Assembly (NCBI GenBank): GCA_012522755.1 | Contig: JAAYJV010000075.1 | Span: forward strand, 2,276 to 66,275 | Length of the DNA: 64,000 nt | DNA from: Candidatus Hydrogenedens sp. | GTDB lineage: Bacteria; Hydrogenedentota; Hydrogenedentia; Hydrogenedentales; CAITNO01 | Direction of reading: 5' to 3' | Shown here: positions 15,255 through 54,577 of the stretch, one piece after another | Numbering within the stretch: the stretch's first letter is position 1 | Layout of the letters: each line of letters opens with the position of its first letter | Notes under the pieces: generated by a model | The model's input: the letters and a program-made list of their open reading frames with translations, nothing else | Told to the model about the DNA's origin: nothing | Databases searched by the model: none | Translations under genes and position numbers: made by a program

Positions 15255-15279
15255 TGCCAATGTGGAAATTGGCGTTCCC
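15255..15279 (+). repeat. Conserved hairpin motif P
   Basis: The 25-mer is identical to 1733-1757. Confidence 0.8.
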
Positions 15280-31460: not shown

Positions 31461-33809
31461 TCAGGGAAGCCGCCCAGTCCCTTCGTTCCTGCTCTTTTCT
31501 TCCGAAAATGTCTCCGAAAGTTCCACACGGATCGGATCCCCGGAACGCCAGTGTACATCCTGCTGGGGGAAGGCGATTTCGATGCTCGCCTCACGGAAGA
31601 GCCGGGTGATACGATGGCGGATATCGCTCATGATCATGGGCCCGTCCACACGGGGACCCCGTTCCAGCCAGAAATAAACCGTGAATTCCAGTGCATGGGT
31701 GCCGAAGGCGGAAAGGAGCACCTTGGGAGCAGGATCCTGCAGTACCTGACCATGATCGGTCACCGCATAAAGCAGCAGTTTCGCCACTTCCCGTGTCGGT
31801 GAGTCGTAGGACACGCCCACATCCACCTGAACACGGTATTTCCTATCCGTCAGGGTCCAGTTGATGACACTGGTTTCCAGAAGCTTGCTGTTCGGGATGA
31901 TGACATCGTAGCCGTTGAACATGCGCAGCCGCACGGAACGCCCGCCGATATTGGTCACCGTCCCTGTCTTATTGTCAATCTCCACGATATCGCCCAGACG
32001 GATGGGTTGTTCACCCATGAGAATCAATCCGCTCAGAAAATTGTTGATCAGATTCTGCGCACCGAAGCCCACACCCAAGGCCACGGCACCTCCGAGAAAG
32101 GCGAAAATCGTCAGAGGAATATTGACATAATTCAAAGCGAAATAGACCACCGTCAGGAAGAGTACGTAGTTGGTCAGTTTCGCCACAATCATGACCACAT
32201 TGGAGCGCAGGTGCAGCCGGTTCACGGCATAATTGCGGATCATCCGGGTGATCATGCGGCTCACCACCAGTCCCACCACGAGAATGGCGATCATGTAAAA
32301 AATTTTGCGTCCCGTGATGCTTTCCTCTCCGATGACCCCAAGCTCATGATCAAAGGCCAGCGAAGTGGTGTCTTTCGCACGATGGAGCACATCGCGCCCC
32401 ACCTGCATCCAGGAGCGTTCTTTCTGGAGAAAACGCGCCTCATCAACAATACGCTCCGCCAGGGTGATGACCTCCACCAGACGCAACTGCATGCGATTTC
32501 TCAGGCGAAGGTTTTCGCGGAGAGATTCCAGCTCCTGCTCCGTCGGTTTGCGGCTGCCATCTTCGTCCTTCCAGTTCTCCAGCTGGGATTCCAGAGCATT
32601 GATCTTGCCCCTCAGGCTGATGGAACGCCGCTCCCCGGCATCCCGCTCTTTGTCCCAGACCACCATGCGTTCCATAAAAGCGGGAATCAACTTCCCCAGA
32701 TCAATACGCTCTTCGGCCATAGCCGGATTGATGATTTGAAAACGAAGGCGCCACAGTTGCCGGACGCTTTCTTCATATTCCAGCAGCGTCTCAATCCCGG
32801 CTATGCGGATACGGCCTGCATCCACCTGACGGCGCAAATGATCCAGATCATTTCTGGCCTGTTGTTGTGCGTCAGGATCGGTGGCCCGGGCCAGACTGCG
32901 TTCGGCTGCAAGCATTCTGTTCCGATGCTGATCGATATCATCCCGGGCTTTGCTCCCTTCCGTGGTCAGAGCCTCCACAAGCCCATCCTGACGCTTCATG
33001 ATCTCATCGAGCTCATCCTGTCGGAAGAGTGTCTGAATGCGTGCAAGCTCCCCCTTCTTTTTCGCAAAAGTATATTCCCCTTCCAGAAGTTGAAGCTGCC
33101 GTTCCTTGCGCTTCAACTCCATGGTCGCCGCCTCATACTCCGCTTCCTGCGCCTGAACCTGCAGCCTGGCTGTTTCACTTTCAAATTGAAGATTCACCCG
33201 GTCCTCCTGCGAGGCCAGACGCAACTGTTCAGCCGTGCGGTTCAGCGTGGCTTTGGCTTGGGCGATATCCGACTGTTCCATGCCCGCCAGTTCCTTGTAG
33301 GCACGCAAGGAAAGTTTTTCCGCATCGATATCCATCTGCTTCAACAGGGCCTGATCACGAAGCCCATCGAGGAAAGCCATGGTATAGGGCGGATCCTCGG
33401 GCAGGCGTGCGAAACTTTTCAGCTCCTCCTCAAATTGCCTGTGTCGCTCCTCCAGAACTTCATATTCGCTCAGCGCATTGGCGTGCCGCTGCCAGGCCGA
33501 CTGCATTTTCCGGAGTGTGCTGATCCTGGCCTGCAAAGCCGTAAAAGTGAATTCCGTAATACCCACAGCACTGGCCGACTCCTGTTCAAGCCATTGCTGA
33601 ATCTGGATTTCCACCTCGCTGATCCGGGTCTCCAGACTGAGAATCAGCTCTTCACGACCAGCCTTTTCAGAATCATTCGCACCGGCCCCTTCTCCCTGAG
33701 CTTCAGCAGGAACAGCAACTGCGGGCTTGTCCTGGGCCACAGCCGGGAGACACATGAAAAGAGCCGAAACAAACAATGACACCAGTGTGGAGCGGATGAA
33801 GGTATTCAT
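31461..33809 (-). CDS. MscK/KefA-like mechanosensitive channel with a long coiled-coil periplasmic region
   Basis: The C-terminal MscS core has GDIVEIDNKTGTVTNIGGRSVRLRMFNGYDVIIPNSKLL preceded by TM helices. The start is taken at MNTFIRSTLVSLF (signal-like, 33809). The tracked 33869 start would overlap the upstream gene. Confidence 0.8.
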   Translation of the reverse strand: MNTFIRSTLVSLFVSALFMCLPAVAQDKPAVAVPAEAQGEGAGANDSEKAGREELILSLETRISEVEIQIQQWLEQESASAVGITEFTFTALQARISTLRKMQSAWQRHANALSEYEVLEERHRQFEEELKSFARLPEDPPYTMAFLDGLRDQALLKQMDIDAEKLSLRAYKELAGMEQSDIAQAKATLNRTAEQLRLASQEDRVNLQFESETARLQVQAQEAEYEAATMELKRKERQLQLLEGEYTFAKKKGELARIQTLFRQDELDEIMKRQDGLVEALTTEGSKARDDIDQHRNRMLAAERSLARATDPDAQQQARNDLDHLRRQVDAGRIRIAGIETLLEYEESVRQLWRLRFQIINPAMAEERIDLGKLIPAFMERMVVWDKERDAGERRSISLRGKINALESQLENWKDEDGSRKPTEQELESLRENLRLRNRMQLRLVEVITLAERIVDEARFLQKERSWMQVGRDVLHRAKDTTSLAFDHELGVIGEESITGRKIFYMIAILVVGLVVSRMITRMIRNYAVNRLHLRSNVVMIVAKLTNYVLFLTVVYFALNYVNIPLTIFAFLGGAVALGVGFGAQNLINNFLSGLILMGEQPIRLGDIVEIDNKTGTVTNIGGRSVRLRMFNGYDVIIPNSKLLETSVINWTLTDRKYRVQVDVGVSYDSPTREVAKLLLYAVTDHGQVLQDPAPKVLLSAFGTHALEFTVYFWLERGPRVDGPMIMSDIRHRITRLFREASIEIAFPQQDVHWRSGDPIRVELSETFSEEKSRNEGTGRLP

Positions 33810-33846: not shown

Positions 33847-34671
33847 TCAAGAGATCTCGTTTTCGTCAAAGTCGTCCAGCAAAGCCTGGCCCAAGCCTAA
33901 AATGGTATTTTTGCCCATATGGAGCCACTGACAGGCATCGAACAAAGGAAGCAAAGGCCCGGCTCCTTCGGGAAAAGCCAGCGCACTGCTGACACAGCGA
34001 TACTCCACTTCCGCCTTTTGGCGAGCCGAATAACGCACATAACGCATGGGACGGGAAGCATCATAAAGGGTCGGCGTTGAATCGCAAAGATCCAGAATCA
34101 GTCTTGACGCATCACGTTGCGCGAGAGAGGGGGACTTGGTTTGAAAATTCCATACACGGCGCATGGCCGCCAATGCAACGTCACGCACCGAAGGAGCGGC
34201 AATGAGCTGACCCCCCCGCATGAGCCTTACAGGCTGTGCGAAAAAGAGCACCACAGGATTGTTTTCACGCCAGCTGTTGCCTTTCAAAAAATCAGGCCCT
34301 TCCGCAATCAGCTCCTGCGCACCCAGAGAAAAGGGGATGCGCGTCTTGCCATATCCGCGTGTGCCCGCCAGATTCCAGGCCGCAAACAACACCTCTTCAT
34401 ACTCTGTCGCCCTTCCGATGAAAATACATTCCAGATCCCTGCCGTCCAGACTGGGACGGATGATATACAAAGGATTCTTTTTGTCCTCAGCCCATCGCCC
34501 TTCAAAAACAATGTCGTAAATACCCGGTGCAAGATCATGGAGAGCCGCACCCCAGATGCCCCGCAAGGTAGAAATATTCACTTCCCCCAAAGGAGGTTCA
34601 AAGCCCAGACGCCACGCGCGCCAGTGCACATCCAGGGCCAGGGATTCTGTCAAGTTCCATACACTGTCCAT
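33847..34671 (-). CDS. orphan Cas6-like RAMP protein (PF10040/DUF2276-like)
   Basis: 274 aa. LRGIWGAALHDL lies near the N-terminus, then PLYIIRP, RGYGKTRIPFSL and VLFFAQPVRL. The C-terminal glycine-rich loop LHMGKNTILGLGQ (nt 33886-33924) fits the RAMP hGxxxxxGhG consensus. RBS AAGGAG lies 8 nt upstream. Confidence 0.55.
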   Translation of the reverse strand: MDSVWNLTESLALDVHWRAWRLGFEPPLGEVNISTLRGIWGAALHDLAPGIYDIVFEGRWAEDKKNPLYIIRPSLDGRDLECIFIGRATEYEEVLFAAWNLAGTRGYGKTRIPFSLGAQELIAEGPDFLKGNSWRENNPVVLFFAQPVRLMRGGQLIAAPSVRDVALAAMRRVWNFQTKSPSLAQRDASRLILDLCDSTPTLYDASRPMRYVRYSARQKAEVEYRCVSSALAFPEGAGPLLPLFDACQWLHMGKNTILGLGQALLDDFDENEIS

Positions 34672-34698
34672 AAAACATTCTCCTTATTGCCAAAAACC

Positions 34699-36837
34699 TT
34701 ACTCAATATCATGCTCATAAATACGCTTCAGCGACTTCGCACGGCCAACCCACTCCGCATCACCATACAGACCTGAAAGAGACAGATCGATGGGCTCAAA
34801 ACCCAATGCCAGTGCCGGAGAATCTTCAGCCAGAGTGAAATCGCGCCCCTCAACATCGACAAACAAAGGATCCGCAATGACAGAATCTTTGTCCTGACCC
34901 CCTTTTTGCCATTCCGCAAAAGACTGATCCTTGAAGCGGATCTCCCGGCCCGAAGCGTCCCAGTAACAGTTATCGTTCAGAACATAATTTCCGTTCTTCC
35001 AGGTGCTCCCCAGAAGTCCGCCCTCTTTGAAATAGACAATGTTTTTCTCAAAGAAGAAAGAAACATGCTCTTCCTCCCGCGACCGGATCAGCTGATCACG
35101 CTGGGAGAAAGCGAAGATATTGTTCACAACCTGATTCTCCCGGCCATAATGCTGATGGAAACCGCCCGTACGGGTGTTGCAGATCACATTGTCCCGCAAC
35201 AGAATATAGGTGCTGCCCTCATCAGTATACAAGCCCCAGCCTCCTGAAATGTTGCCGTTCGACAGAATATCATGAATATAATTGTTGCACAGTTCAGTCC
35301 CCGGCGACACGCCCAGGGTATAAATTCCGCCCATATCGCTCAACTGGCCCTTGCCCAGATTGTGGATGTGATTGCCCACAATTTTGTTGTGATGGGCCGA
35401 CGTGGGCGCATATCCCCAGGACCAGCCCACGGACACGCCCGAATAACGGAAATCGCAAATCTCATTTCTGGAGATCGTGTTGTGCGAACTCCGGCCGATC
35501 CATACACCCACGGCGCTGCGATAAATGCGGCCGCCATCATGAAGCAGACAGTTGTCCAGAGTGTTGTGCTCTGTCAGACAGGGAACCAGCTCCGCATCAT
35601 GACCCTCGCCGATCCGGACACCGCCTGCGCCGAGATCCGTGAAAGCGCAACGCTCCACCACGGTATTCTGCGTTCCCAGGCGAAGCCAGATCCCGTAACT
35701 GCCCACATGAGACACCTCGCAATCGCGGAAGACGCAATGACGGGCGCCCCGTGTTTCGATGGCCGCACCCACGCTCGTTTCCGCCTGACCGTCACTGTGC
35801 CCTTCTTTACCGATGGGCCAGTCGCCATAGCGCATATGAATCCCTTCAAAATGAAGATGGGAAACAAAAGCCTGCTTCTCAGGAACGCCTGTCAGCGACA
35901 GAAACTTACGGGTCAGCGGAATTACCGCCTCCACCGTATCCGGCGTCTCTCCGGCCCGGGGGATATAATGCAAGAGTCCCGCCTTCCGTTCCAGACACCA
36001 TTCGCCCGGAGTGTCCAGTGCATCCAGCAGATGATCCACGAAGAACCATTGCCTGTCCAGCCAGCGAGTGAAAGGCCAGCGCGCCGCACCTGTGAACTCC
36101 AGAATGCGCTTTTCAAAGTCGACCGCTTTCACGCGATGCAGAGACGTCGCCCAGGAATGGAATACCACGAACACAGCCTCATCCAGACCTGTCCAGTCCA
36201 GGATATCGCCCTGGTGAAAACGTAGCCGGGTACTGCTTTTCTTTTCTTCCCCTTCTTTCGCGTCTTCAATCAGAACAGCGCCATCCGTGTAAAAAAAGTC
36301 TGACTCCGCCGGATAATCACCAGCCGTGTGGGCCGCCTTCGGGAAACGTGCCGCATCGAGACGCTCGCCATTCACCCAGAAAGCGCCCACAGCAAAATCA
36401 TCGCCCTGAGCTTCGGGAACAGAGGCTACCCAGCGATCTTCACGAATCTCCCAGGAATCAATACGCCGCCCGCCGAAAAGAACAGGCACCTCGTCCGGAT
36501 AAGCCTTGTAGACGACGGGTGCATGACGAGTCCCTGAATCTTCCGGTTCAAAGACGATGGGCGATGTGATCGCATATTTACCCCCGCGAAGGAGCACCTC
36601 CACGGGAATTTTGTCATGCCCATCTGTCACGGCCCGCCATTGCCGCAAGGCATCCCGCGCCCCGGCGACAGTCGCCAGTGGACCATCCCCGCCGGCCGGG
36701 TCCGGCTGTTCCAGAGTGCCCGACCAGGCATCATTCCCTTCCGGCGACACATACAGCCTTTTGAGCTCGTCCTCGGCAAATCCTGAAACACACGCAAGCG
36801 CTACAGCCAAGCAAAACATAAAAGAAAAAATACGCAT
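34699..36837 (-). CDS. secreted right-handed parallel beta-helix repeat protein
   Basis: Signal peptide MRIFSFMFCLAVALACVSGFA. Repeated beta-helix rungs such as NTISRNEICDFRYSGVSVGW and NKIVGNHIHNLG. The start is set at 36837 after RBS GGGAG. Confidence 0.75.
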   Translation of the reverse strand: MRIFSFMFCLAVALACVSGFAEDELKRLYVSPEGNDAWSGTLEQPDPAGGDGPLATVAGARDALRQWRAVTDGHDKIPVEVLLRGGKYAITSPIVFEPEDSGTRHAPVVYKAYPDEVPVLFGGRRIDSWEIREDRWVASVPEAQGDDFAVGAFWVNGERLDAARFPKAAHTAGDYPAESDFFYTDGAVLIEDAKEGEEKKSSTRLRFHQGDILDWTGLDEAVFVVFHSWATSLHRVKAVDFEKRILEFTGAARWPFTRWLDRQWFFVDHLLDALDTPGEWCLERKAGLLHYIPRAGETPDTVEAVIPLTRKFLSLTGVPEKQAFVSHLHFEGIHMRYGDWPIGKEGHSDGQAETSVGAAIETRGARHCVFRDCEVSHVGSYGIWLRLGTQNTVVERCAFTDLGAGGVRIGEGHDAELVPCLTEHNTLDNCLLHDGGRIYRSAVGVWIGRSSHNTISRNEICDFRYSGVSVGWSWGYAPTSAHHNKIVGNHIHNLGKGQLSDMGGIYTLGVSPGTELCNNYIHDILSNGNISGGWGLYTDEGSTYILLRDNVICNTRTGGFHQHYGRENQVVNNIFAFSQRDQLIRSREEEHVSFFFEKNIVYFKEGGLLGSTWKNGNYVLNDNCYWDASGREIRFKDQSFAEWQKGGQDKDSVIADPLFVDVEGRDFTLAEDSPALALGFEPIDLSLSGLYGDAEWVGRAKSLKRIYEHDIE

Positions 36838-36982
36838 CAATCTACTCCCATGAAGATTCGGGTTTATCCATTCACAGCATCCAGTATAATCCGGAATCGC
36901 TGCCAAATTGTAATTATTGGAATCGGACAGTAAGCTGATGCTCATAAAAAAAGCCCTTGCATCACTGCAAAGGCTGAAAAAA

Positions 36983-37350: not shown

Positions 37351-39465
37351 CTACCGTGATAATTTGATAAAGGGGCTGGCATGTCCTGAAGATGTTATCG
37401 TCAATGAGTCCCGACTGCGCGTAGCCGCCACGAAAAGCAGTGAACGTTCCCGCACGTTGTGTTCTTGTTGTGCCACAGGATCGTCGTCAATCCCTTTTCG
37501 CTGATAGGGGATTACACCTTCGTTTACTCCGGCGAGAATGACACAGGGAAACTCAAGCCCTTTCACCCGATGCATCGTCGCCAGACGTACACCAGGCTCG
37601 GAGCCATCGCTGTCCTTGTCCAGAATGGCCGTATTGAACCCAGCCTCCTGCAATACCGGCTGATATTCTGTTTTCAGCATACGCGCATTACGGGCGGCCA
37701 CACAGATATCTTCCTCAGCGCGTCCGTGACTCAGCAGTTCCCGACAATGCTGCACCAGAAAGTCCTTCTCCTCATGCAGGGAATGAAAGAAATGGATATC
37801 CGGTTCCGGCCCGTTAAAGAGCGAGGTATAACCTGCCTGATCATCGATCCCGCCATCCAGATCATCCACATCAATGCCGTGCAACAAGGCCAATGCCCAG
37901 TTCTTGATCTGCTCTGTAGTCCTGTAATTGATCCGGAGCTTGTGCGACCGTCCCCGGATATTGATATCACAGCGTCCCAGCACTACCGACGGCCCATAAA
38001 TACGCTGGTGTGCATCGCCGACAATAAACAGATCATTGGGGTTTTCCGGAACCAGGGCCCGGATGAGCCGCCATTCCTCTTCAAAAAAGTCCTGCGCCTC
38101 ATCCACCACCACAGCCCGATAGGGCAGCCGCGACTTGCCTTCCAGATACAAGCGGGTCTGACGGATCACATCACTCCATTCCACTTTCCCCAGTTCCTTC
38201 AAGGCATCACGATACTGTTCAAAGACCTCCCACAATGCGGCACGATCTTTTCTGGATAAGGTTTTTCCCCGCCCGACACGCCGTACCTTGAGATAGTCCT
38301 GTCGCGTCTGCAGATCATTATTCTGAACGACTTTTTCCCATTCATCCCGCAAAAAGTGGAGACTCCATTCGATTTGGCCCGTATAACCGACAGCCCTGTT
38401 CCAACATCCGGCCCTGTCATCATCTGTCGCAATCTGAAAGGAGAAGCCCTGCATCTTCATGAATTTCACGGCCCAGTCATGCAAATGTACCACTTCGATT
38501 CTCTTGAACTCATCGCCACAGAGATTCTTCAGATTCTGTTTCACATCCTTTGCCAGGTTCTTGGTAAAGGTAGTCACCAGAATACGATCCGTACTCTCCG
38601 TAAATACTTCCCGTACAAGATAGCGGGCCCGATGCATGGCCACCACCGTTTTACCTGTTCCCGCTCCACCCGTCACCTTTGCGGGTCCATTGAACCGTTT
38701 CTCCACCATCCGTTTTTGCGCCGGGTGCAGAAAAACACGCCATTTTTCCAGGGGCGCACTGAGAATGGCTGTCAGATCATGCTGCGAATTGATGGTAACA
38801 AAACGTCTTTCCGAGTCGGGATGTTTCAACGCCGCCGTAAAGTCATTTGTATTGACAGCTGCAACCTTGGCCGTACCCGCAGTTACCTCCCGAACCTCTT
38901 CCGCCGTGAAACCCTCAGCCAGCCATCTCAAAGCTTCAGCTGATTCTTCAGGCAAATGCTTCTCCAGCTCATACAAAGCGTTCCGGTTTTTCAATGCACG
39001 TACAGAAGGCATCAGCACGGCGGGCACCCCCACAGACGCCAGGTCCCGATCACTCACATGAGTAAAGAGTGCTTCCGCTGTTTCCGATACAGACTCTTCC
39101 TTCCGAGCCTCAGGCATCTGCTCAGCCGCGTTGACATTCACCACTTGCAGCGCACCCGTCGTTGGATTTACATCAAAGACACGTTCACCGGCCCATTCCA
39201 TGGCCTCATCATGATGATCCACCCACAAAAGGATATAGACATTCCCCCGTTCCGGATGCAATACAATACCCCGGTAATCGCGGCTGATCCGCACGGTGCG
39301 TATCTTCTCATCCCGCACAGCATGGATCTTCTCGTAATTGATACCCGACGAAGTCGGATTCTCACGGAAGCGCTCCATAAATTCGCGTACCCGTCTTTGC
39401 TGCGACCTGGGTATGCGCGAAAAGGCATTCAGAAAATCACTGGATATGGCAACAGTAGGTTTCAT
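37351..39465 (-). CDS. UvrD/Rep-type SF1 helicase with an N-terminal RelE/ParE-like domain
   Basis: 704 aa. Walker A GGAGTGKT (nt 38641-38680), VVVDEAQDF, and C-terminal MHRVKGLEFPCVIL and LLFVAATRSRD. The first 95 aa (RISRDYRGIVLHPERGNVYILLWVDHHDEAMEWA) look like a RelE/ParE toxin fold. Confidence 0.75.
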   Translation of the reverse strand: MKPTVAISSDFLNAFSRIPRSQQRRVREFMERFRENPTSSGINYEKIHAVRDEKIRTVRISRDYRGIVLHPERGNVYILLWVDHHDEAMEWAGERVFDVNPTTGALQVVNVNAAEQMPEARKEESVSETAEALFTHVSDRDLASVGVPAVLMPSVRALKNRNALYELEKHLPEESAEALRWLAEGFTAEEVREVTAGTAKVAAVNTNDFTAALKHPDSERRFVTINSQHDLTAILSAPLEKWRVFLHPAQKRMVEKRFNGPAKVTGGAGTGKTVVAMHRARYLVREVFTESTDRILVTTFTKNLAKDVKQNLKNLCGDEFKRIEVVHLHDWAVKFMKMQGFSFQIATDDDRAGCWNRAVGYTGQIEWSLHFLRDEWEKVVQNNDLQTRQDYLKVRRVGRGKTLSRKDRAALWEVFEQYRDALKELGKVEWSDVIRQTRLYLEGKSRLPYRAVVVDEAQDFFEEEWRLIRALVPENPNDLFIVGDAHQRIYGPSVVLGRCDINIRGRSHKLRINYRTTEQIKNWALALLHGIDVDDLDGGIDDQAGYTSLFNGPEPDIHFFHSLHEEKDFLVQHCRELLSHGRAEEDICVAARNARMLKTEYQPVLQEAGFNTAILDKDSDGSEPGVRLATMHRVKGLEFPCVILAGVNEGVIPYQRKGIDDDPVAQQEHNVRERSLLFVAATRSRDSLTITSSGHASPFIKLSR

Positions 39466-39614
39466 AAGATATTTCTCTCACAGAAGGCGGCCCTGTCCTG
39501 TCCGATCGGCCGTCCCATTGTTTTTAAAAGTCTTTTGAATTAAGTACAACCAGTTTATCATGAAAAAGAGCCTGTCCCGGAAAGAGTGAAAAAACACGGC
39601 ACACTCCTTCAGGT

Positions 39615-42600
39615 TTATGACAAAGCATCAAGAATCTCTGTTGTTCTGTCCGACCTGCCCACCAGAAACACCAGCCACTCCTGTTCTTCAAAAGCCTCCA
39701 CAAATTCCTCCTGATCTTCCGTAAGCACAGCTACCCGCCCATCCATCCAGGCCAACTCCGCTTCGGCACAAATCCGACCGTTGGCACCGGCCAACTCAAA
39801 GCCTATCTCAGGCGGTGCTTTGCCAGCCGCCGCACAGCTCCTCAACAGTTCGTGAACCAGCGGATCCGACAACTCCAGCGCCTCGGTCCACACCTCCGAC
39901 AGTTCTCCGCCAGACTCCGGCAAGGACGGATCGGGAAGGGGCGCAGCTACCACGCCGATTTCTCTTTCTTCCACCAGTGCACGACTCACCCACTGGAAGC
40001 CCGGCAGAAACTGCAAGAGATTGGCCGTACCCAGCATGCACCGCCAGATCTCTTTGTAATTTTCTTTTTGTCTGGCAAAGCGATCATCTTCTATTCGCAG
40101 AAGGGCTTGAATCTCCTCCCACCGGAAGACGGCGGCCGCTTTCGCATCACAGGAAACCAGCAAAGCAAGCAGGTTCATCTCAAAGAGCCCGGCCAGAGGG
40201 CCCAGCATCCCCTTCACAGGATCCGCCTCATGCCAGTCCGCAACCCTTTGCGACAGCATTGCCTCGTAACAGGCCTCCACCTGCTGTTTATCCCGGCAGC
40301 TTGTCAAGGCACTCAAAGTCAGCGCCGCTATGTTCCGTCCCCAGTGCAGGCCATCCGGATTCATGAGATATTCCAACAGAAGTTGTACCCCTGTCGTTTC
40401 AACCATCATGCCATCAAAGATACCATCGGCTTCCACAATCTTTCTGGCAACATTCTTCCGGACAGCCAGATTGGAGAAAAAAGTGACGGGCCTGCCCGCC
40501 TCATCCTTTTGCTTCTGTTCCGAAAACTCCCTGATATCATCCCAGCAGAGTGACCACACCCGAAAACGGCCGGAACGCAAAATGGACATGCGCTTGCGGA
40601 TATCATCGGCAATGCGCGCCTTTTCCTCTTCAGGCATGACATGATAACGGAATCCATCGAGAAACACAGCCACAGGAAACAGCCCCGCCTCTTCTCTGGC
40701 CGGCCAGAACACGAAGTCCGGCCTGGAAGAAAGCGCTACTCCCTGGGCATCCGTAAGCGATACCTGCGGCTCAAGAATCCATTCCCGCCCTCCGAGGGTC
40801 ACACGATGACAGGGCTTGCCCTGACGCAGATACCGTGTCCACTTATACTGCACTTCTTTAAAATGCTCCGCCAGAATATGAATGAACCGCCCTTCCAGTT
40901 CGCTCTCAACAAAATTATCCGGCAGTTCAATGTTCTCAAGCGTCTGAACCTCTTCCAGCTCGTCCCAGTGCTCAAGAATCTTTTCCAGCATTTCAATACC
41001 CAGTTCCCGGGAAATATTCTTCAGAGAATGCTGGCCCTGATAAGCATACAAACAGCGGTAACAGCCCTTCGCCCCTTCGCGCTGGCGACATTCACAGCTT
41101 TTCAGGGTATTCCACGCCTCAACCAGCAGGCTCTTGAACCCTTCAGGCTTATGCACAAATTCTTTCAGATATCCCGTTCCGCCGGGCACCTTGTCATACA
41201 GCACCAGAAAATGTTTGGACTCCCCATCGCCGCCCAGTCCCGGCACGGGCTGCTCACGAACCAGCAGATGCAGGGGATTGCCCTTGAACTTCTTCTTCAG
41301 CCCCAATTCCAGGCAGGCCTTGAAAGTCGCAAGCTTCTCCTCCGCCTCCAGAATGGATACAGGCAGTAAAATACGGATGGCCTCCGATTCCAGCTGTCTG
41401 TAAAGATAGACCTTCACCCAGGGATCTTCCGATTTGCGACCTTCCCACCGGCACCAATACCGGTGTTTCGGATCTTCATTCTTCTTCTTACGTACCACCC
41501 CGCAATAATGACAGAGTACAAAGCCATCTTCAGATACGGGACTCCCCGCCACCTGCATCATTTTATCGCGGCCGCTGCTTACTCCGAAATTCACCTCACG
41601 AAGTGTCACCTCTTTCAGATACTCAAAACCAAAAGGAAGACTCCGGATCGTATAGCCCCTGTCCCAGTTCTCCTCCTGCACATCAAAGAAATCAGAAAGG
41701 GTGTAATACTCTTCTTCCCGCTCATCTTTCTCATCGCCGCTCCGGCTCCTGTGATCCGGAACACGGGCCGACACACGCCGTAAAGGAAGGGTCATATGCT
41801 TCTGTCCGTGATCACTCCAGTTTTCACTGCCGCATTTCGGACACATGCTCTTCCCCTTATCCTCAATGAGCGTCTCCACATAGTGGCATTTGTCACAAAA
41901 ACGCCATTCCTTCAAAAGATATTCGCCGCCCACCTCCGTTGCCACCTGATCCACAACCACCTTGCGCGCCTCCGCATAGAAAGTGTTGAAGGGTGCCAGC
42001 TCGCGTATGGCCATACCCGCCCCGCGGATATACTCATGGCTTTCCATCTCCGGCTCACCTTCCGGGCCCTGTACTCCGTATATCTCGGAATACAGTTTCA
42101 CCCCTGTCTCCGGAAAAGCGTAATTGGGAATCAACCCTTCATCCGTAAAGAGGTTCAGCGGATATTTTTCACGGAGTTCTTTCATGGTGCTGTACAGCAT
42201 GGAACGCTCCATTTTGAGATCCCGCAGTCGTTTCTTCTCATCCTCCACCGATGTCGGATCCTCTTCAACCTGTTTGATCGCACTGAGCACACGAGCCATC
42301 TGCTGCTGGAGCCGCTTCAGATCGGCCTCTTCCTTTTCCAGACAACTGATAAGCTGCTGCTCATAAAGCTCCGACTTCGCATAGTCCCGGAGCCGCTCCC
42401 GGTTCGGTTCTGTCACCACCTCATCAAAATAACTCAAAAAAAGATCACACAGGGCAAGTCCATGTTCTTTCGCATACTTCAGAAAGGAAAGGGGATACCC
42501 GCCCCTGCGCCACCCCGCAAGCATGAAGCCCACCTGTGCGGGCATCACGGCCTGACGATCCTCCCGCGCCCAGCTGTCCAGGCAAAAAGCCAGAAACTGA

Positions 42601-45600
42601 CGTTTCAGCATCTCCGGTGCATCCAGATAACAACCCGGCGGATTCACGCTTCCCCCGATCATCTCAAATGGATCTTCAAAGAAAAAAAGATCATGCGGCT
42701 TCATATTGGCAAGAGCCAGTACAAGCGCATTCCCCGTCTTCCGGCCGCCCCGGCCGATGCGCTGCAGATAATTCGTAGCCGTAGGCGGGATGGAGCAGAC
42801 CATGACCGACGACAGATCTCCCACATCAATACCCATTTCAAGCGTTGGCGTACAGGCAAGCAGATTGGGAGCATCAGCCACTTTCCCCGTCTTGAACAGA
42901 TCTTCCACCTTCTCACGGCGCGCCCGGTTCAGAATACTCGTATGCTCCTGGCTGAAGATGCGGGCAACCTGGCCACGACGGTAAAATTTCACATAGAAAG
43001 AATCTCTTCCTTCCTCATCAGCCTGATAAAGATCCTCCGATAACCAACCCAGACAGGGCATCCCCTCCCAGAAGCGAAGATCGTCAGCCGCAACAGTCAA
43101 GGCGTGATCCATCCCGGAACCGCGCAAGAAGGCCGTATGTCTGGTGATCAGATAAGCATCCGGATTGATGGCATAAACCTCGTCCTTCGTCTTCGGGATA
43201 AGGGTCAGCACACCCACCTTCGCCAAAACAGCCACAGCATGTCTGTACAGCGCATTCACGTCACCAGCTGTATCAGGAATCTGCAAAGAGCGATGGACCC
43301 AGTTGGAATGCCAATTGGCACTGCCTCCGCCGAAGCGCAAAAGAGGGTCAAACACTGTCTCGCCCAAACCCAGAGAAAGAAAACGGGGGAGTCGGCTTTC
43401 AGAACTGAAAGGCGACATGAGAGGCTCATTCTTCTTCGTCAGGAAATACCTGTTCCCCTGATTCTGGCCATAGCGCTTCAACAGCGGATCATACACGGCT
43501 CCCCGTTGACGGGCCCGGGTCAGCCAGCCCAGCAGGAAATAACGGAGCCGCTCACGGCTGATGTCTGCAAGATTCGCCTCATGGATACGCAGCGCCTCCT
43601 CCAGCGCTTCCGCCGCCTCATCCAGAAGCGCCGGATCCAGGCAGACCGTGGAACACCCCACCTTCTCAAGACTCCGGCCCGTGCGACAGTTGAGCCCGAA
43701 CTCCATGCTGATCTCCCAGCGGAGCCGCTTCATGAATCTCTTCAAAAATTTCTTGTCCGGTTTCCTGTCCGGCCCCGTGATAAACGCCGTATATTCCGGC
43801 ATGGGCGCCAGATCAGGCGGCAAAAAGGTGGCGATGAGCTTTTTCCAGTCGCCATCCATCCTGATCAGCCAATAATCCACCAGTTTGTCACCGAAATCTT
43901 TCAGAGGCATCGCCCCGGACTCCTCTTTCTCAAGAAGGGTCTGTAATGCCGTACGAAGATTGAAACGAAAAGTACGTGCCGCAAAAAAGCCCGACCGATG
44001 ACTCGCATCCTGTACGGAATCCGTAAAGGCAAGCATCTTCTTGTCCCTGTTGAAAGGACTGATATACAGATGGCTCACAGCCACAGACGAAAGACTCGCC
44101 GCCTGAGAACCCACCACAGACAAGGCATGTTCGCTCTCACAGCGCGGACACTGCTGCATGTCCCGCGGAAACTGTCCCTGGCTCATCCGCCTGTGCGCTG
44201 TCACAGCCACTCCCGGCCCCCCGCATTGCTGACACACAGGATTGTGGCTCAGTTCCAGACAGCACGAACATAAAAAATCCTTCGTACCCGTCAGGGCATC
44301 CCCTTTTTCATGAGGAAAGAGATAACAAGTTCTGGCGCCCCGGTCAAAAAATTCCCTGTAAATTTCCCGCGGATCTTCGCTCACGCGACTGTCCGCCTTC
44401 CGTTTGAAAGTCAGCCAGCCCGTATGCCCGCAGTCACGACAATAGACCATGGGCAAGCCTGTGATCTCCGAGTTCAAAGGCACCTCATCGCGCCAGAAAA
44501 ACGCCGGCTCCGGAGAGATCCGGCGCATGAGCCGCCTCACCTCCCGTACCCACAGCTGAACCTGACAGGCCAGGAAAGGCGCCACAAAGCCGTCAAAATC
44601 CTTTTTCGATTCGTTGATAATGCTCAGAAAAGACTGGAGCAACGCATTCTGTTTCTCTACGGAAAAAGTTTCAAAGACAGGGTCCCACGCCGCAATTCGC
44701 TTACGCCATTCGCCCCATTCGGTCACACTGTTTTCCAGATTCGTCAGAATCGTGCGAAGAAAGCTGTGCTCACTCAGAACCCGGCCCCGCTCCAGAGGGC
44801 TCAGCGTCGGATCCTGAAACCACAAGCCGCATTGACGTGACACATAGTCCTCAATACTTTCCTCCAGCCCCGGAAGCAGCTCGTCAACGCTCTTCACCTC
44901 CGGAAATTTGTTGTCATCCAGCGAAGGCGCATCCAGATAAACCGACATTTCCTCACGCTCTTCGCTGATCACAGCCGCCAGACCGAAGCGCTCCCCGAAA
45001 AGACGCTCCGCAAAGGCCACCAGATCGCCCTTGGCCTGCGAAGCATCACCCGCCAGCGTCGCACTCGTACCCACACAACAAAGCCCTCCGGGCTCAATGC
45101 CGAGCTTCGCCTTCAAACGCCGGATCAGACAGGCCACATCACTGCCCTGCGCTCCGTCATAACTGTGAAGCTCATCCAGCACAAGATAACGTAAGCTCTT
45201 CCCGCTTGTATACTGCCAGATCTTCTGATCCTCCGGGCGGATCAACAGATAATCCAGCATCTTGTAATTGGTGAGCAGAATATCGGGAGGTTGATTGCGC
45301 TGGGTATCACGGTCCGTAATCACATGATCAGGACCCATCGTCGTATGACGGGCCACATCACCCTCACGTTCGCCCACATACATGCCCACACGCACTTTCC
45401 CCTGCAGGCGTTTGTCACCCCAGATCACCTCCGCAAAACGTTTCGCCTGGTCCGAAGCCAGAGCATTCATGGGATAAAGAATCACCGCCTTCACACCCGG
45501 CTGACGGATCGCACCATTTGCCATACGGTAACAATGATCCAATAAGGGATAGAGAAAACACTCCGTCTTACCCGAGCCCGTGCCACTGGTCACCACCGTC

Positions 45601-45890
45601 GACAGAGGCTGACGACCTTTCAGACTCGAAAGACGGTGAAAGGCACTCAACTGATGCAGATAAGGATGAAAAGAGGGGTGAACCTCCAGATAACGCGCAG
45701 CCTCCGACATGTCGCCACGCCGATAAGGAAGCTGCATGTTCACATAAGGGCCCTTGAATATACCCTCCTTCGGATCACAGAGAAAAGCCTGCAACCGCTC
45801 AGCAACATCTTTGTCCTGAAAAGAAAAGGTTGTATCAAGAAAATCCAACAAGGTGTCTTTGAGCTCGTTAGCGATAATACCAGGGATCAT
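39615..45890 (-). CDS. giant DExH helicase fused to DUF1998 and a PD-(D/E)xK-like module (DrmA plus DrmB-like)
   Basis: 2091 aa. Helicase motifs: TSGTGSGKTECF (I, aa 101), YPMNALASDQ (Ia), LVLDELHSYDG (II), GTSATLA (III), LEMGIDVGDL, QRIGRGGRK (VI). Cys pairs CDKC..CPKC and CHYCG, then YDKVPGGTGYL..GCYRCLYAYQ (DUF1998-like). RPDFVFWPA..VAVFLDGFRYH lies at aa 1723-1750 (nt about 40640-40724). Confidence 0.8.
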   Translation of the reverse strand: MIPGIIANELKDTLLDFLDTTFSFQDKDVAERLQAFLCDPKEGIFKGPYVNMQLPYRRGDMSEAARYLEVHPSFHPYLHQLSAFHRLSSLKGRQPLSTVVTSGTGSGKTECFLYPLLDHCYRMANGAIRQPGVKAVILYPMNALASDQAKRFAEVIWGDKRLQGKVRVGMYVGEREGDVARHTTMGPDHVITDRDTQRNQPPDILLTNYKMLDYLLIRPEDQKIWQYTSGKSLRYLVLDELHSYDGAQGSDVACLIRRLKAKLGIEPGGLCCVGTSATLAGDASQAKGDLVAFAERLFGERFGLAAVISEEREEMSVYLDAPSLDDNKFPEVKSVDELLPGLEESIEDYVSRQCGLWFQDPTLSPLERGRVLSEHSFLRTILTNLENSVTEWGEWRKRIAAWDPVFETFSVEKQNALLQSFLSIINESKKDFDGFVAPFLACQVQLWVREVRRLMRRISPEPAFFWRDEVPLNSEITGLPMVYCRDCGHTGWLTFKRKADSRVSEDPREIYREFFDRGARTCYLFPHEKGDALTGTKDFLCSCCLELSHNPVCQQCGGPGVAVTAHRRMSQGQFPRDMQQCPRCESEHALSVVGSQAASLSSVAVSHLYISPFNRDKKMLAFTDSVQDASHRSGFFAARTFRFNLRTALQTLLEKEESGAMPLKDFGDKLVDYWLIRMDGDWKKLIATFLPPDLAPMPEYTAFITGPDRKPDKKFLKRFMKRLRWEISMEFGLNCRTGRSLEKVGCSTVCLDPALLDEAAEALEEALRIHEANLADISRERLRYFLLGWLTRARQRGAVYDPLLKRYGQNQGNRYFLTKKNEPLMSPFSSESRLPRFLSLGLGETVFDPLLRFGGGSANWHSNWVHRSLQIPDTAGDVNALYRHAVAVLAKVGVLTLIPKTKDEVYAINPDAYLITRHTAFLRGSGMDHALTVAADDLRFWEGMPCLGWLSEDLYQADEEGRDSFYVKFYRRGQVARIFSQEHTSILNRARREKVEDLFKTGKVADAPNLLACTPTLEMGIDVGDLSSVMVCSIPPTATNYLQRIGRGGRKTGNALVLALANMKPHDLFFFEDPFEMIGGSVNPPGCYLDAPEMLKRQFLAFCLDSWAREDRQAVMPAQVGFMLAGWRRGGYPLSFLKYAKEHGLALCDLFLSYFDEVVTEPNRERLRDYAKSELYEQQLISCLEKEEADLKRLQQQMARVLSAIKQVEEDPTSVEDEKKRLRDLKMERSMLYSTMKELREKYPLNLFTDEGLIPNYAFPETGVKLYSEIYGVQGPEGEPEMESHEYIRGAGMAIRELAPFNTFYAEARKVVVDQVATEVGGEYLLKEWRFCDKCHYVETLIEDKGKSMCPKCGSENWSDHGQKHMTLPLRRVSARVPDHRSRSGDEKDEREEEYYTLSDFFDVQEENWDRGYTIRSLPFGFEYLKEVTLREVNFGVSSGRDKMMQVAGSPVSEDGFVLCHYCGVVRKKKNEDPKHRYWCRWEGRKSEDPWVKVYLYRQLESEAIRILLPVSILEAEEKLATFKACLELGLKKKFKGNPLHLLVREQPVPGLGGDGESKHFLVLYDKVPGGTGYLKEFVHKPEGFKSLLVEAWNTLKSCECRQREGAKGCYRCLYAYQGQHSLKNISRELGIEMLEKILEHWDELEEVQTLENIELPDNFVESELEGRFIHILAEHFKEVQYKWTRYLRQGKPCHRVTLGGREWILEPQVSLTDAQGVALSSRPDFVFWPAREEAGLFPVAVFLDGFRYHVMPEEEKARIADDIRKRMSILRSGRFRVWSLCWDDIREFSEQKQKDEAGRPVTFFSNLAVRKNVARKIVEADGIFDGMMVETTGVQLLLEYLMNPDGLHWGRNIAALTLSALTSCRDKQQVEACYEAMLSQRVADWHEADPVKGMLGPLAGLFEMNLLALLVSCDAKAAAVFRWEEIQALLRIEDDRFARQKENYKEIWRCMLGTANLLQFLPGFQWVSRALVEEREIGVVAAPLPDPSLPESGGELSEVWTEALELSDPLVHELLRSCAAAGKAPPEIGFELAGANGRICAEAELAWMDGRVAVLTEDQEEFVEAFEEQEWLVFLVGRSDRTTEILDALS

Positions 45891-45903
45891 GAAACAACCT
45901 CTT

Positions 45904-46407
45904 TAAACCACGGAAGAGTTGGACCACGGAACACACTGAACACACGGAAGAAATTGGACCACGGAACACACTGAACACACGGGAAAAGACTTTTGAAGAT
46001 GGATAGTAGATTGAAGGATTAAGCACAGAGGAAAAGATTTCATTTAACTTGTTTTTTTGTTTTTGTTTGGGTTGATCAATAAAGTTGATGACATGATGAA
46101 GATGTAAAGATAATAGCATTTACTTGAGGAAAAGAAAAAAGAAAAGAAAGAAATATAAAGTCTCTGTTTCCCGTGTATTTACCTCTTATTGTTTTATGCT
46201 TATATACGGGTTGACTAATATAGTTGATGATATGAAAGAGATATGCGGGTAATAATATTCACTGGATTAAAACAAAAAACAAAAAAGAAATATAAAGCCT
46301 TTGTTTCCTGTGTATTTACTTCTTATTTTTTTTATGCCTTTATTTTCTTCTTTCCGTGTGTTCCGTGATTGACCTGGTCCAATTCTCTTCATCCGTGGTT
46401 CAATTTT
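45904..46407. repeat. Family B TIR element, copy R2 (full length, about 0.5 kb)
   Basis: It lies between the giant helicase start (45890) and the methyltransferase stop (46389). The left TIR is duplicated. The AT-rich core has two internal direct-repeat pairs. The right TIR overlaps the last codons of the methyltransferase. Confidence 0.85.
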
Positions 46408-49400
46408 TTAAATCTTCTATAAGCTTCCCTCATATCCTTTTCACGGTCGTTCTTCTTGAAGGGAGGCACATATACCCGTTCCATCCGTGGTTCCATTTTA
46501 GGGTCTTCCCAGCGGATACCCACACTCCTCTCACCTCCCGGCAACACCACCTCGCCCAACAAGGCCCCATCCCCACGGTACCCGCTCCGCTTCAAAGGCT
46601 CACGAATATCCACCTCCATCTGCTCCGCAAGCTTCAATACCGCCCCAGGAACCAGCCGCCCTAAACGATCATAGCGGTTGTTTTGTTCATAACCTTGCAG
46701 CACAGAAAACTGAACCCGGTAAATCGTAATCAATTCCTCCTCCGTCAGATCCAATGCCAGAGCAGCCAGAGCATCCAGCTCCACCAATGCCTGACGTCGC
46801 TCCAGATCTGTGCGTAAAGCACTCTCCCAAGTCCAGGGCGTAGGCATCAAGGCATTCCAAAGGTCAGCGTAATGAGAGGTGAGGCAGGTCAATTTCAAAG
46901 CACGGGTTACAATTTCCTGATTCAGCGTTTCAGTTGATGGTAACGGGAGTTGCACAAAAGTATCTATGAAAAGATCGCTCTTGCCAGTGGTCTTAATAAA
47001 AAAATCATAGACCAGAGAGTGCAACAAGCCTTCCACCAGACATAGGGTAATATAGTCGTCAAAAACGACGGATAAGACAGTGTTGATGTGTGCAGCTCCT
47101 GGTGGACAAATGGTGGAGATCAATGTCCTTTCACCTGTAGTGTCACACATCCTCCGATGAACGTGTCGGAAAAACTCCGTTACGGCTTTCTCTTTCCAGT
47201 GGGGCGTCTGCTGCTTATACTCCTCAGGGGAACAAGCAGGCAGATAATTCGTTCGAGGCAAATAGTCAGGATCTATGACCGTGAGATCAATGGAGGTATA
47301 ATCAAGACCGTGCTTACAACCTTCATTGGGCGTTTTAGCAAAGGGGGTTCCCACAAAGAAATGAGGACCTGACAGTACCCAGTCCCTGACGTCTTTCAGC
47401 TGCTGCGTTTCCCTGCGGATAATGCCATCCCGTTGGGCATAAGTTTCATCAAACATAACCGTAGAAAAGAACAGATCGTCTAAATCACTCAGACGCCGAT
47501 GTTGGTGGGCTATTTTTTTCAGAACCTGTATAATTTCTTCACTGTGAATAACAGGAAGGCGGGCTTCCAGAGGAGGTGTTCCAGGGGAATCATAGAGAGA
47601 AGCCATGAGCTTCAGCCTGTCTTTATCGATTGTCAGGAGGCGGTGTCTGTGAGGTCGTAATTCCCATTGATTGTTTTCATTCTTATACCCCGGTACATTC
47701 CCCTCTCCATCGTGTTGCATGGAGCCGTCAATGGTGAGAGGATGGAATAGGTTCGACATGTGAAGAAAAGAAATGGGTTTCCCTATTTTATTTTCATATA
47801 TATTTATGCTGTAATGTCTTGTATGACTTATATCAAATAGAATAAGCTCATTGATAAATTGAAAGTGCGCTCTCAGGCGGATATAAAGAGCCTTTCGTAA
47901 ACGCCCTCCCCTGGCGTCGTCATAAACGCCTTCAGGATGAACTAGGCCTATAACTCCTCCTTCGGCTGCGATTTCCCAAGATCGGGTAATGAAACATTTG
48001 TATAGATTGGTTTGAATTTTTTCGAGAAGTGGGTAATTTTGTCGGGCATTGAGAAAAGCTTTGGTGGCCGTTTGTCCCACAAATTCAGAGCAGTATTCTT
48101 TGAGTCGTACTTCCTGAGTCAGATATTTGTGTCTTTGTCGGGCCATGGCGTCAGCTGAGAGTTTTCTGAGGGCAAAGAAAGGCTCAAATTCGGCGAGAAG
48201 GCCTCCTTCATTCCATCCAACCTTGATCCACGGTGGATTTCCGAGGATGAGATCGAAGCCTCCCTTGTCAGCGAAGACTTCCGCGAATTGGAGTTCCCAA
48301 TGAAGGAAGTTTCGTTGTTTTGCAATTTCCTGGACGAGGCCGAGGCGTGGCACATCTTTGCAGAGAGTATCCACATTGACTCTGCCGAATTTTTTTACAA
48401 AGGCCACATGGTCGGCACTGAGAGCCTCTTCCTGCTCCAGACCCATGAAAAGCGATTCCGCATCTCCTCCTGTGACGGTTCCTTTGAGGATGAGCTCCAC
48501 CTCCAGGAGAAAGCTGTCCCGGGTGGGTAGGAGCTCGCTCTGATCCAGAGGCCAGAACCAGAGGGCGCACCAGTAGTCCATGATGAGTTTGAGACGGCGG
48601 AAGGCTGTATAGGGCCGCTGCAGTTCCGCGGCGATCCTGTCCTGTTCCTCATAAAGGGGAGTGGGACTTTGGCGGTGGGGCTGTCCCCAGAGGCGTGGAC
48701 TTTTGGTGGTTTTTGCTACAGCTTCCCGTCTTTCCCGGATGACCTGTTGCCAGAGCTCATCAATGGCGGCACTGAGCTCCAGGAGCTTGTCCGTGTCATA
48801 CTGGTCGTAGGGCTGGCAGAAAGCTTTGCGCCAGGCTGTTATTCCTTTCACTGCGTCGGGCATGAGCTCCCGCATGGCTTTATTCTTGTCAAAGGCGGCC
48901 ATGTCATCATCGGCCACGAGGAAGTGGTATACGCCCTGACGGGGTCTTTCCAGCCATTGGGGCCCCAGGGCGAGGGGGAGGGGGCTGAGACTGAGCCAGT
49001 TGGTTTTTTTGCTTTTGTCGCGCAGATCGGCGGCATCAAAGATCTGACGGCGGGCACCGACGAGGCTGTTTCCCGTGGCTAGGCGCAGGCCGAACCAGGG
49101 ACACTGGCTGCCCCGATGGATGGTATTGAGCCAGAGAGAGGTGCGGGCCAGCTCTGTGGCGATGGGGTTGAGGTCCACGCCATAACAGTTGTGTTCCGCC
49201 AGAAAGGCCTTGACGCGCTGCCGTTCTTCGGTATAGTCGGAAGGGGGGATGAGCTCCCCCGTCTCGGCCTGTTTTTTTTCCAGATAGGCCTGGGCCAACT
49301 GGTTCACACCTTCGTTGATGAAGGCGGCGGAGCCCATGGCGGGTTCGCAGAGGCGCAGCTGGAGGATTTCATCGGCTGTCTTGTCTTTGAGGAGTTCTTT

Positions 49401-51104: not shown

Positions 51105-51127
51105 AAGATCAACCTCATTTATTAGAA

Positions 51128-51631
51128 TATAACCACGGAGAATAGGACCGCAGAATTCAGGTCACACACGGAAGAAATTGGACCACGGAACACACGGAAC
51201 ACACGGAAAAAGATTTTTGAAGATGGATAGTAGATTGAAGGGTTAAGCACAGAGGAGAAGACTTCTTTTGACTTGTTTTTTTTGCTTTTGTTTGGGTTGA
51301 TCAATAAAGTTGGTGACATGATGAAGATGTAAAGATAATAGCATTTACTTGAGGAAAAGAAAAAAGACAAAGAAAAGAAAGAAATATAAAGCCTCTGTTT
51401 CCCGTGTATTTACCTCTTATTGTTTTATGCTTCTATACGGGTTGATTAATATGCTTGATGACATGAAAGAGTTACGCAGGGAATATTATTCACTGGATTA
51501 AAACAAAAAAAGAAAAAGAAATATAAAGCCTCAGCTTCCTGTGTATTTACCTCTTATTGTTTTATGCCTTCAAACTCTTTTTCCGTGTGTTCCGTGTGTT
51601 CCGTGGTCCAATTCTCCGTGGTTCAATTCTC
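51128..51631. repeat. Family B TIR element, copy R3 (full length)
   Basis: 51177-51212 is perfectly complementary (36 nt) to 51577-51612. The core is collinear with R2 and R5. Confidence 0.9.
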
Positions 51632-51632
51632 T

Positions 51633-54500: not shown

Positions 54501-54577
54501 GAATTTCACCTCGGTGTATCATTGCAAACAAAAAACATCATAACCTCAAATATCCTAGCATACCACAGCAGGAAGAA

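Follow-up and report, generated by a model that had tools for sequence, protein, structure and literature searches.

Closest described systems

Processing of CRISPR arrays in trans, by a cas6 gene that lies outside any CRISPR locus, has a published precedent in TtCas6A (TTHA0078) of Thermus thermophilus HB8 (PMC3902920). The gene considered here, a cas6 whose 274-aa product we refer to as P0001, lies in a 64-kb stretch of DNA from Candidatus Hydrogenedens sp. (hereafter the window; C38:2276-66275 of genome G000), and we consider it very probable that P0001 too acts in trans, processing the array that adjoins a reverse transcriptase-Cas1 (RT-Cas1) gene, array C, for type III-D effectors. TtCas6A is like P0001, as proposed, in processing arrays elsewhere in its genome, and it leaves an 8-nt handle (PMC3902920); three of its structures (4c8y, 4c8z and 4c97) match our model of P0001 with template-modelling (TM) scores of ~0.5-0.6. 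The two proteins are nonetheless only ~16% identical in structural alignment and belong to different Cas6 subfamilies; TtCas6A has a defined catalytic residue, His37, for which no equivalent is assignable in P0001, and T. thermophilus has a second, locus-embedded paralogue, TtCas6B, whereas P0001 is the sole stand-alone Cas6 detected in its genome.

RT-Cas1-associated type III-D or III-B loci, such as the type III-D locus of Vibrio vulnificus YJ016, provide the same setting, i.e. RT-Cas1 adaptation, a type III effector and a Cas6-processed array, but in V. vulnificus the cas6 gene is inside the RT-Cas1 locus (PMC6821258), whereas here it is on another contig among unrelated genes. In the Cas6-RT-Cas1 protein of Marinomonas mediterranea (6dd5, 7kfu) the Cas6 is fused, while the RT-Cas1 of our genome is a 651-aa protein without a Cas6 domain. 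A distant RT-Cas1 relative, the 962-aa P0194 from a Logan contig, is fused to PF27225 (AF_1859_N) and PF10040, the marker domains of the P0001 family; this fusion links the Cas6 family to RT-Cas1 systems.

Two further groups invite comparison. The type III-associated PF10040 Cas6 proteins of Planctomycetota, Latescibacterota, Binatia and other phyla (L038-L109) are 28-41% identical to P0001, and have in common with it the LRGxWGxAL, RYSxRQ and HxGKxxxxGxG motifs and a repeat class ending in GGGGATTGAAAC; the genes for most of them have Cmr or III-D genes, Cas1/Cas2 and an array at less than 10 kb, whereas P0001 and two orthologues are encoded between genes for a beta-helix protein and an MscK-type channel. 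Csb2, of type I-G systems, is encoded in this genome as well and likewise leaves a handle of 8 nt (PMC9638904), but it is a fusion and an integral Cascade subunit that cuts 4 nt 3' of a long hairpin, whereas P0001 is a single Cas6 with two RRMs, from a family that accompanies repeats with short stems, which are cleaved at the base of the stem.

Assignment of the protein to Cas6

The gene under study is the following.

33847..34671, minus strand: cas6 (P0001), 274 aa, a stand-alone Cas6 of the PF10040 / PADLOC PDLC01496 family, from the open reading frame (ORF), profiles and AlphaFold2 model

The ORF starts with ATG, and its translation carries every motif quoted in a sequence-only reading of this DNA that preceded our analysis (LRGIWGAALHDL, PLYIIRP, GYGKTRIPFSL, PVRLMRGG, VRYSARQ and, at the C-terminus, LHMGKNTILGLG). 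That reading had taken the protein for a Cas6-like RAMP, an identity that both profiles and structure bear out. PADLOC Cas6 profiles span nearly the entire protein (PDLC01496, E 2.5e-35, residues 30-264; PDLC01477, E 4e-25), and Pfam PF10040 (CRISPR_Cas6) matches residues 144-262 only, at 25.5 bits, just above its cut-off of 25 bits; judged from the sequence, the profile match to Cas6 is far above chance. An NCBIfam scan of the 274-aa protein returned no family. Since neither PF01881 nor TIGR01877 matches the protein, we place P0001 in the PF10040-type branch and not in the TIGR01877 branch. An exhaustive phmmer search of 1.84 billion cluster representatives found 319 relatives at E <= 1e-3.

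The AlphaFold2 model, which is based on a 60-sequence family alignment, has a predicted local distance difference test score (pLDDT) of 93.8 and a predicted TM score (pTM) of 0.90. When it was compared with the PDB by Foldseek, the top 34 matches were all Cas6 (E 6e-10 to 3e-6, TM 0.47-0.66; 6njy, 4c9d, 4ilm, 6dd5, 6fjw and 3pkm among them). These matches span type IV Cas6, T. thermophilus Cas6A and Cas6B, and the Sulfolobus, S. thermophilus and Pyrococcus Cas6 proteins, with the Cas6 domain of Cas6-RT-Cas1 (6dd5) among the best; the model and its matches agree on the Cas6 fold of two tandem ferredoxin/RRM-like domains.

The family-invariant residues R37, G41, F56, G106, R172, S215, Q218, G253, G259 and G261 are all retained in P0001, as are the near-invariant H251 (57/60 family members) and K254 (59/60). 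A glycine-rich loop of the GxGxxxxxGxG type is present as H251-M-G253-K254-NTIL-G259-L-G261, so that the family's HxGKxxxxGxG loop is kept, and its three glycines (G253, G259 and G261) are invariant across the 60 members. Among the residues that might be catalytic, R37 in helix alpha-1 is invariant, H45 in helix alpha-1 is conserved in 37 of the 60 and is R, K or Y in other members (Arg in the orthologue of 76% identity), and H251 is conserved in 57. The active sites of Cas6 proteins are known to differ, some being without a histidine (PMC3902920). P0001 is a bona fide and apparently intact Cas6, and it is probably an active endoribonuclease.

CRISPR-Cas systems of the genome

An array scan found no CRISPR array in the 64-kb window, as the sequence-only reading had stated, and the window holds no cas gene other than this cas6; copies of the genome's three CRISPR repeats are likewise missing from the entire contig C38. 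These absences apply just to the window and to contig C38, and not to the genome. The source organism is a metagenome-assembled genome (4.0 Mb in 199 contigs, 95% complete) that is seen in metagenomes of anaerobic digesters and wastewater. When the whole genome was scanned for repeats and the ORFs beside them were searched with profiles, this revealed three CRISPR repeat families on six contigs, together with a type I-G system, a type V-B system, two type III-D modules and an RT-Cas1/Cas2 unit, as follows.

C175:23948-33485: type I-G locus, with Cas3g, Cas8g/Csx17, Cas7g, Csb2, Cas4-Cas1, Cas2, then array A
C21:7495-13287, continuing at C3:23-395: type V-B locus, with Cas12b (1362 aa), a Cas4-Cas1 fusion and array B
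C79, ~9.4-25 kb: type III-D effector module 1, with Cas10d, Csx10/Cas5, several Cas7 fusions, Csx1 and a CARF-HEPN protein
C79:45977-47932: RT-Cas1 (651 aa), with Cas2 and array C beside it
C79:48580 to the contig end: array C, with its trailer, carrying a degenerate terminal repeat, at the start of C71
C20, ~12.5-21.7 kb: type III-D module 2, with Csx1, Cas10d, Cas7, Csx10, Cas7, Csx19 and Cas7

Array C, whose 37-nt repeat is GGTGAATGAAGATGCCCCGACACGAGGGGATTGAAAC, is the array of interest here; contig C20, with the second type III-D module, has no array. Neither type III-D module contains a Cas6 by PADLOC or Pfam, even when unassigned ORFs are included, and genome-wide six-frame searches with PDLC01496, PF10040, PF01881 and TIGR01877 match P0001 alone, i.e. 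they reveal no other stand-alone Cas6. Array A is the genome's largest, with at least 36 repeats (30 running off C175 and 6 at the start of C34; repeat CTTTCCGCCGATAAAAATCGGCGGCCCCATTGAAGC), and its locus includes Csb2, a Cas5-Cas6 fusion (E 4.8e-131). Cas6 has no part in the type V-B Cas12b locus.

The gene had been described as an orphan, and this holds within the window, where there is neither an array nor another cas gene. It does not hold for the genome, which has four CRISPR-Cas modules elsewhere and arrays A, B and C on contigs other than C38; array C and the cas6-less type III-D modules are, moreover, just what the sequence-only reading had said would make the gene an ordinary displaced cas6. 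Because no Cas6 is detectable in the type III-D modules of this genome, which also has an array of the matching repeat type, we regard P0001 as the product of an ordinary cas6 encoded apart from its partners. Its remote, stable and selected position is then the sole unusual feature, and a mild one.

Repeat geometry and the likely substrate

The repeat of array C folds into a 4-bp CCCC/GGGG stem that directly abuts ATTGAAAC. Cleavage at the base of the stem is the classic Cas6 geometry. Array A folds into an 8-bp stem, followed by CCCC (4 nt) and then the 8-nt ATTGAAGC, and this is exactly the geometry cleaved by Csb2, which has been shown experimentally to cut 4 nt 3' of the hairpin base (PMC9638904). 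Since Csb2 is present and array A has the geometry that Csb2 cleaves, the type I-G system is self-sufficient.

A survey of the family associates it with the first of these geometries. It covered 72 loci that encode Cas6 family members in species-representative genomes (L038-L109), and its query was an alignment of 10 sequences; 36 of the loci have full flanks, i.e. at least 9 kb on both sides of cas6. Cas genes or an array lie within 10 kb of cas6 in 30 of these 36, and 25 of the 30 have type III effector genes (mostly Cmr, i.e. III-B, and some III-D); type I-G effector genes were found in 0/72 loci. Among the 32 arrays that adjoin family members, 20 end in GGGGATTGAAA(C) and the others are close variants, the typical repeat being a 37-mer of the form N13-GCCCCG-N6-7-GGGGATTGAAAC. 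Array C belongs to this repeat class and array A falls outside it; the array A type of geometry occurs in 0/32.

The nearest relatives of P0001 point the same way. P0005 (46% identity) is the closest homologue outside the syntenic group and also the closest with an adjoining array, the repeat of which has AGATGCCCCG...GGGGATTGAAAC in common with array C. In a quick IQ-TREE phylogeny with Shimodaira-Hasegawa-like approximate likelihood ratio test (SH-aLRT) support, from which L095, L100 and L107 (internal stops in the matched stretch) and the fragmentary L103, L104, L108 and L109 were left out, P0005 and the III-B-adjacent P0006 are together sister to P0001 (99% support). The tree intermingles III-B with III-D contexts, and the family therefore serves both subtypes. 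The best genome match, L038, adjoins III-D genes, and its Cas7 matches the Cas7 of C79 at 1e-102. The survey and the tree tie the Cas6 family to type III and to the repeat class of array C.

Given this repeat class, the type III association, the P0005 repeat and the self-sufficiency of type I-G, array C is the most likely substrate of P0001, and the two type III-D complexes are its likely clients. We infer the substrate, the cut and the hand-over to be as follows: P0001 would bind the short 4-bp CCCC/GGGG hairpin of the 37-nt repeat and cut at the stem base, leaving ATTGAAAC as an 8-nt 5' handle, and the resulting CRISPR RNAs (crRNAs) of array C would then go to the two type III-D effector complexes (C79 and C20), with array A being processed by Csb2 and the type I-G system needing no P0001. 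As supporting context, the congener G001, which is without this cas6, also yielded no Cas10d homologue.

We considered whether P0001 might serve the type I-G array A, or act as a backup for it, rather than serve array C alone; it would then duplicate Csb2 or supply type III-D with crRNAs of array A. The predicted 8-nt handles of the two arrays are nearly identical (ATTGAAGC in array A vs ATTGAAAC in array C), array A is by far the largest array, and TtCas6A and TtCas6B each cleave two repeat types (PMC3902920). Such a role is nevertheless unlikely: the 8-bp stem with 4 nt before the handle is the Csb2-cut geometry (PMC9638904) and Csb2 is at hand, and neither this geometry nor type I-G effector genes accompany any family member in the survey.

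Some points weigh against pairing P0001 with array C and type III-D. The pairing rests on an association at the level of the family, and the stem branch of the syntenic clade to which P0001 belongs is long (0.85 substitutions per site), so that specificity could have changed along it. No catalytic histidine is assignable, H45 being conserved in just 37/60 and H251 in 57/60. The assembly is a draft of 199 contigs, 95% complete, and arrays break contigs, so a second Cas6 or array could be unassembled. Type III loci without cas6 can, in principle, rely on host RNases.

The trans-acting assignment has consequences for annotation. A cas6 without a cas neighbour in 64 kb should be taken for an orphan or exapted gene only after a check of the entire genome, a caution that is strongest for draft assemblies, where arrays break contigs. 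For this organism, it gives two cas6-less type III-D systems and an RT-Cas1 array a probable processing enzyme, and sets P0001 apart from the type I-G and type V-B systems, which are self-sufficient. Should complete genomes confirm the stable, selected remote position of the gene in three diverged lineages, the locus would illustrate, on a small scale, a CRISPR component that acts in trans and is uncoupled from the mobile cas operons that it serves.

Neighbourhood and history of the cas6 gene

The cas6 gene is closely flanked by two co-oriented genes, and has its own ribosome-binding site.

34699..36945, minus strand: beta-helix gene, upstream of cas6; secreted right-handed beta-helix protein, 748 aa (Pfam Beta_helix and NosD)
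34680..34685, minus strand: Shine-Dalgarno sequence AAGGAG, 8 nt 5' of the cas6 ATG and within the 27-nt gap (from the sequence)
31461..33809, minus strand: MscS/MscK-type mechanosensitive channel, 802 aa, downstream of cas6 (Pfam MS_channel_2nd, MS_channel_3rd and MS_channel_1st)

The strong ribosome-binding site and the spacing that had been reported earlier for this gene were both recovered: 27 nt separate the beta-helix stop codon from the cas6 ATG, and 37 nt the cas6 stop codon from the likely MscK ATG (33809). A terminator-like hairpin is found at 36975-36952 on the minus strand, just 5' of the beta-helix start, and no such site is found between cas6 and its neighbours. Because no terminator-like site parts cas6 from its neighbours and there is one just 5' of the beta-helix gene, co-transcription of cas6 with the beta-helix and MscK genes is plausible, and the beta-helix gene and cas6 probably belong to one transcription unit. 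The beta-helix protein is without a functional link to CRISPR.

Synteny in relatives, which had been suggested as a check, shows the same non-CRISPR position in three lineages and an empty site in a fourth genome. Orthologues occupy the identical beta-helix/cas6/MscK position in two metagenomic lineages (P0002, 76% identity; P0004, 69%), and the longer orthologue contig continues with the same methyltransferase and RhaA genes as here. The beta-helix neighbour is also present in L025-L029 and, without cas6, in G001; MscK synteny is seen in L025, L027 and G001. In the lineages of P0002 and P0004, most flanking proteins share 77-89% identity with ours, vs 74-78% for G001. In G001, which is of the same genus, the beta-helix and MscK genes are direct neighbours separated by ~240 bp, and cas6 is absent between them; no match to P0001 was found in G001, and no Cas10d homologue in G001 or in any of 40 relatives searched. 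The empty site of G001 reflects either gene loss or divergence before the insertion.

The three syntenic cas6 genes are each 825 nt (274 aa) long, without indels or stop codons, and the ratio of nonsynonymous to synonymous substitution rates (dN/dS) among them is 0.15-0.21, with synonymous sites near saturation. Because position, length and this low dN/dS are common to all three lineages, we conclude that a single insertion placed cas6 between the beta-helix and MscK genes and that purifying selection has since maintained it at this non-CRISPR site; the insertion would have occurred in the ancestor of at least three lineages, which would have retained the gene, probably co-transcribed with its neighbours. 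An RT-Cas1 orthologue of 90% identity (P0154) derives from another sample than do the cas6 orthologues, and lies on a contig that stops short of any repeat, so it is uninformative about a CRISPR module in the other cas6-bearing lineages.

This conservation bears on whether P0001 is a decaying or catalytically dead remnant of a rearranged type III locus. The gene does lie apart from every cas gene, and none of its histidines can confidently be called catalytic, but a remnant is extremely improbable given the dN/dS values and the intact reading frames of three lineages; all invariant family residues are kept as well, the ribosome-binding site is strong and the AlphaFold2 model is confident and compact.

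The same conservation could be taken to favour exaptation, i.e. recruitment of the Cas6 to a non-CRISPR job such as processing or binding hairpin RNA of the host or of mobile elements, which would explain why the gene is fixed among housekeeping-type genes. A non-CRISPR position is conserved in three lineages under purifying selection, cas6 is tightly packed and probably co-transcribed with unrelated genes, the clade has a long stem branch, the genome is rich in repeated hairpin elements, and stand-alone placement recurs in entire Isosphaeraceae and Pirellulaceae clades, two such genomes being without a RAMP match. We nonetheless find this explanation highly unlikely. The same genome contains a matching array and two cas6-less type III-D modules; no hairpin plus handle like that of repeat C was found outside array C, in the genome or in the window; and the repeated hairpins of this genome are unlike the substrate class of the family. 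Of the five stand-alone relatives that were examined, three come from genomes with type III clusters at other places and two from genomes that carry Cas1, and the sister species that is without this cas6 is also one in which no Cas10d homologue was detected. 

A related possibility, which we judge to have a similarly slim chance, is that cas6 has been domesticated at its fixed site, co-transcribed with the beta-helix and MscK genes, for a role beyond or instead of crRNA maturation. Examples would be the processing of RNA from the host or from mobile elements, or constitutive expression, by which type III modules that arrive horizontally would stay functional; if true, this would explain the persistence of the gene in three species-level lineages despite patchy CRISPR modules. 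The trans-acting role in array C processing remains our preferred reading. The exact core of the array C repeat gave 0 matches in Joint Genome Institute (JGI) metagenome contigs.

Stand-alone relatives

Six of the 36 full-flank family loci have no cas gene or array within 10 kb. In five of these six the genome was examined. Type III RAMP clusters were found at other places in three, in two cases at a distance of only ~23-24 kb, and the remaining two genomes have no RAMP match but do have a Cas1. The stand-alone clades comprise L083 (Tautonia sociabilis), L054 and L055 (Isosphaeraceae), L039 and L063 (Pirellulaceae), and L097 (a Vicinamibacteria chromosome); it is the T. sociabilis and Vicinamibacteria genomes in which Cas1 is present and no PF03787 RAMP match was found. 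The stand-alone Cas6 proteins of Isosphaeraceae, Pirellulaceae and Vicinamibacteria would be better candidates than P0001 for a non-type-III partner or another role.

Repeated hairpins that resemble arrays

The genome is rich in hairpins, as had been noted from the window. Tandem arrays of a repetitive extragenic palindrome (REP)-like hairpin, with core GTAGGGGCGAAAAATCTTTCGCCC and a period of ~50-110 nt, occur at contig ends and break the assembly; they lie on many contigs, as listed here.

C7:38469-38865, C14:19238-19444, C22:46176-46400, C89, C123:43030-43378, C126 and C170:27422-28523: REP-like hairpin tandems

Candidate arrays from a k-mer scan (C7, C14, C22, C89, C123, C126, C170 and others) proved to be such tandems or coding repeats, and were rejected as CRISPR arrays. 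A second element, a 25-nt hairpin at 15255-15279 of the window (GCCAATGTGGAAATTGGCGTTCCCAGGAGTGACTCTCAA), has a close copy just past the trailer end of array B (C3, ~447-490; GCCAATGGGGACATTGGCATTCCCAGGAGTGACTCTCAA); it is a dispersed genomic repeat, unlike the Cas6 substrate class. Processing of either the REP-like hairpins or the window-15255 hairpin by P0001 was rejected, since both are unlike the substrate class and the window has no GGGGATTGAAAC-type site.

Other features of the window and genome

The nearby defence island that had been called DISARM-like is real, and extends over ~37.3-54.5 kb of the window (37351-54509), beginning 0.4 kb past the beta-helix gene. It encodes a UvrD/GajB-like helicase (704 aa), a DruE-like helicase (2091 aa) with a C-terminal HNH-like match, a type IIG restriction-modification/DrmMI-like methyltransferase (1571 aa) and a DrmD-like SNF2 helicase (958 aa), i.e. 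a mixture of Druantia-like and DISARM-like components, and no cas gene was found within it.

In the type V-B locus, array B has a 36-nt repeat (GTGGGCCCCTTCAGAAGACTTCCCAAAAACGGACAC), and the Cas12b is unusually long (1362 aa vs profile lengths of 1009-1130).

Between the III-D effector genes and RT-Cas1 on C79 there is a minus-strand operon (C79:33086-45684; L002:1086-13684) that encodes an 835-aa double-AAA ATPase, a 195-aa protein, a PP2C phosphatase (568 aa), a VWA-like protein and two PD-T4-6-like Ser/Thr kinases. The contig with the RT-Cas1 orthologue of 90% identity (L111:1-7003) again shows the order AAA, small ORF, PP2C and VWA, running divergently from RT-Cas1 and Cas2, and the operon may be a conserved accessory or a separate defence module tied to the RT-Cas1 adaptation unit.

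Inside the type III-D operon of C79, the interval between Cas7 and the CARF-HEPN gene holds a 211-aa radical-SAM/4Fe-4S (Fer4_12) protein (C79:21668-22300; L017:15668-16300) and a 453-aa protein without a family match (C79:22296-23654); both may be accessory genes of the C79 III-D module.

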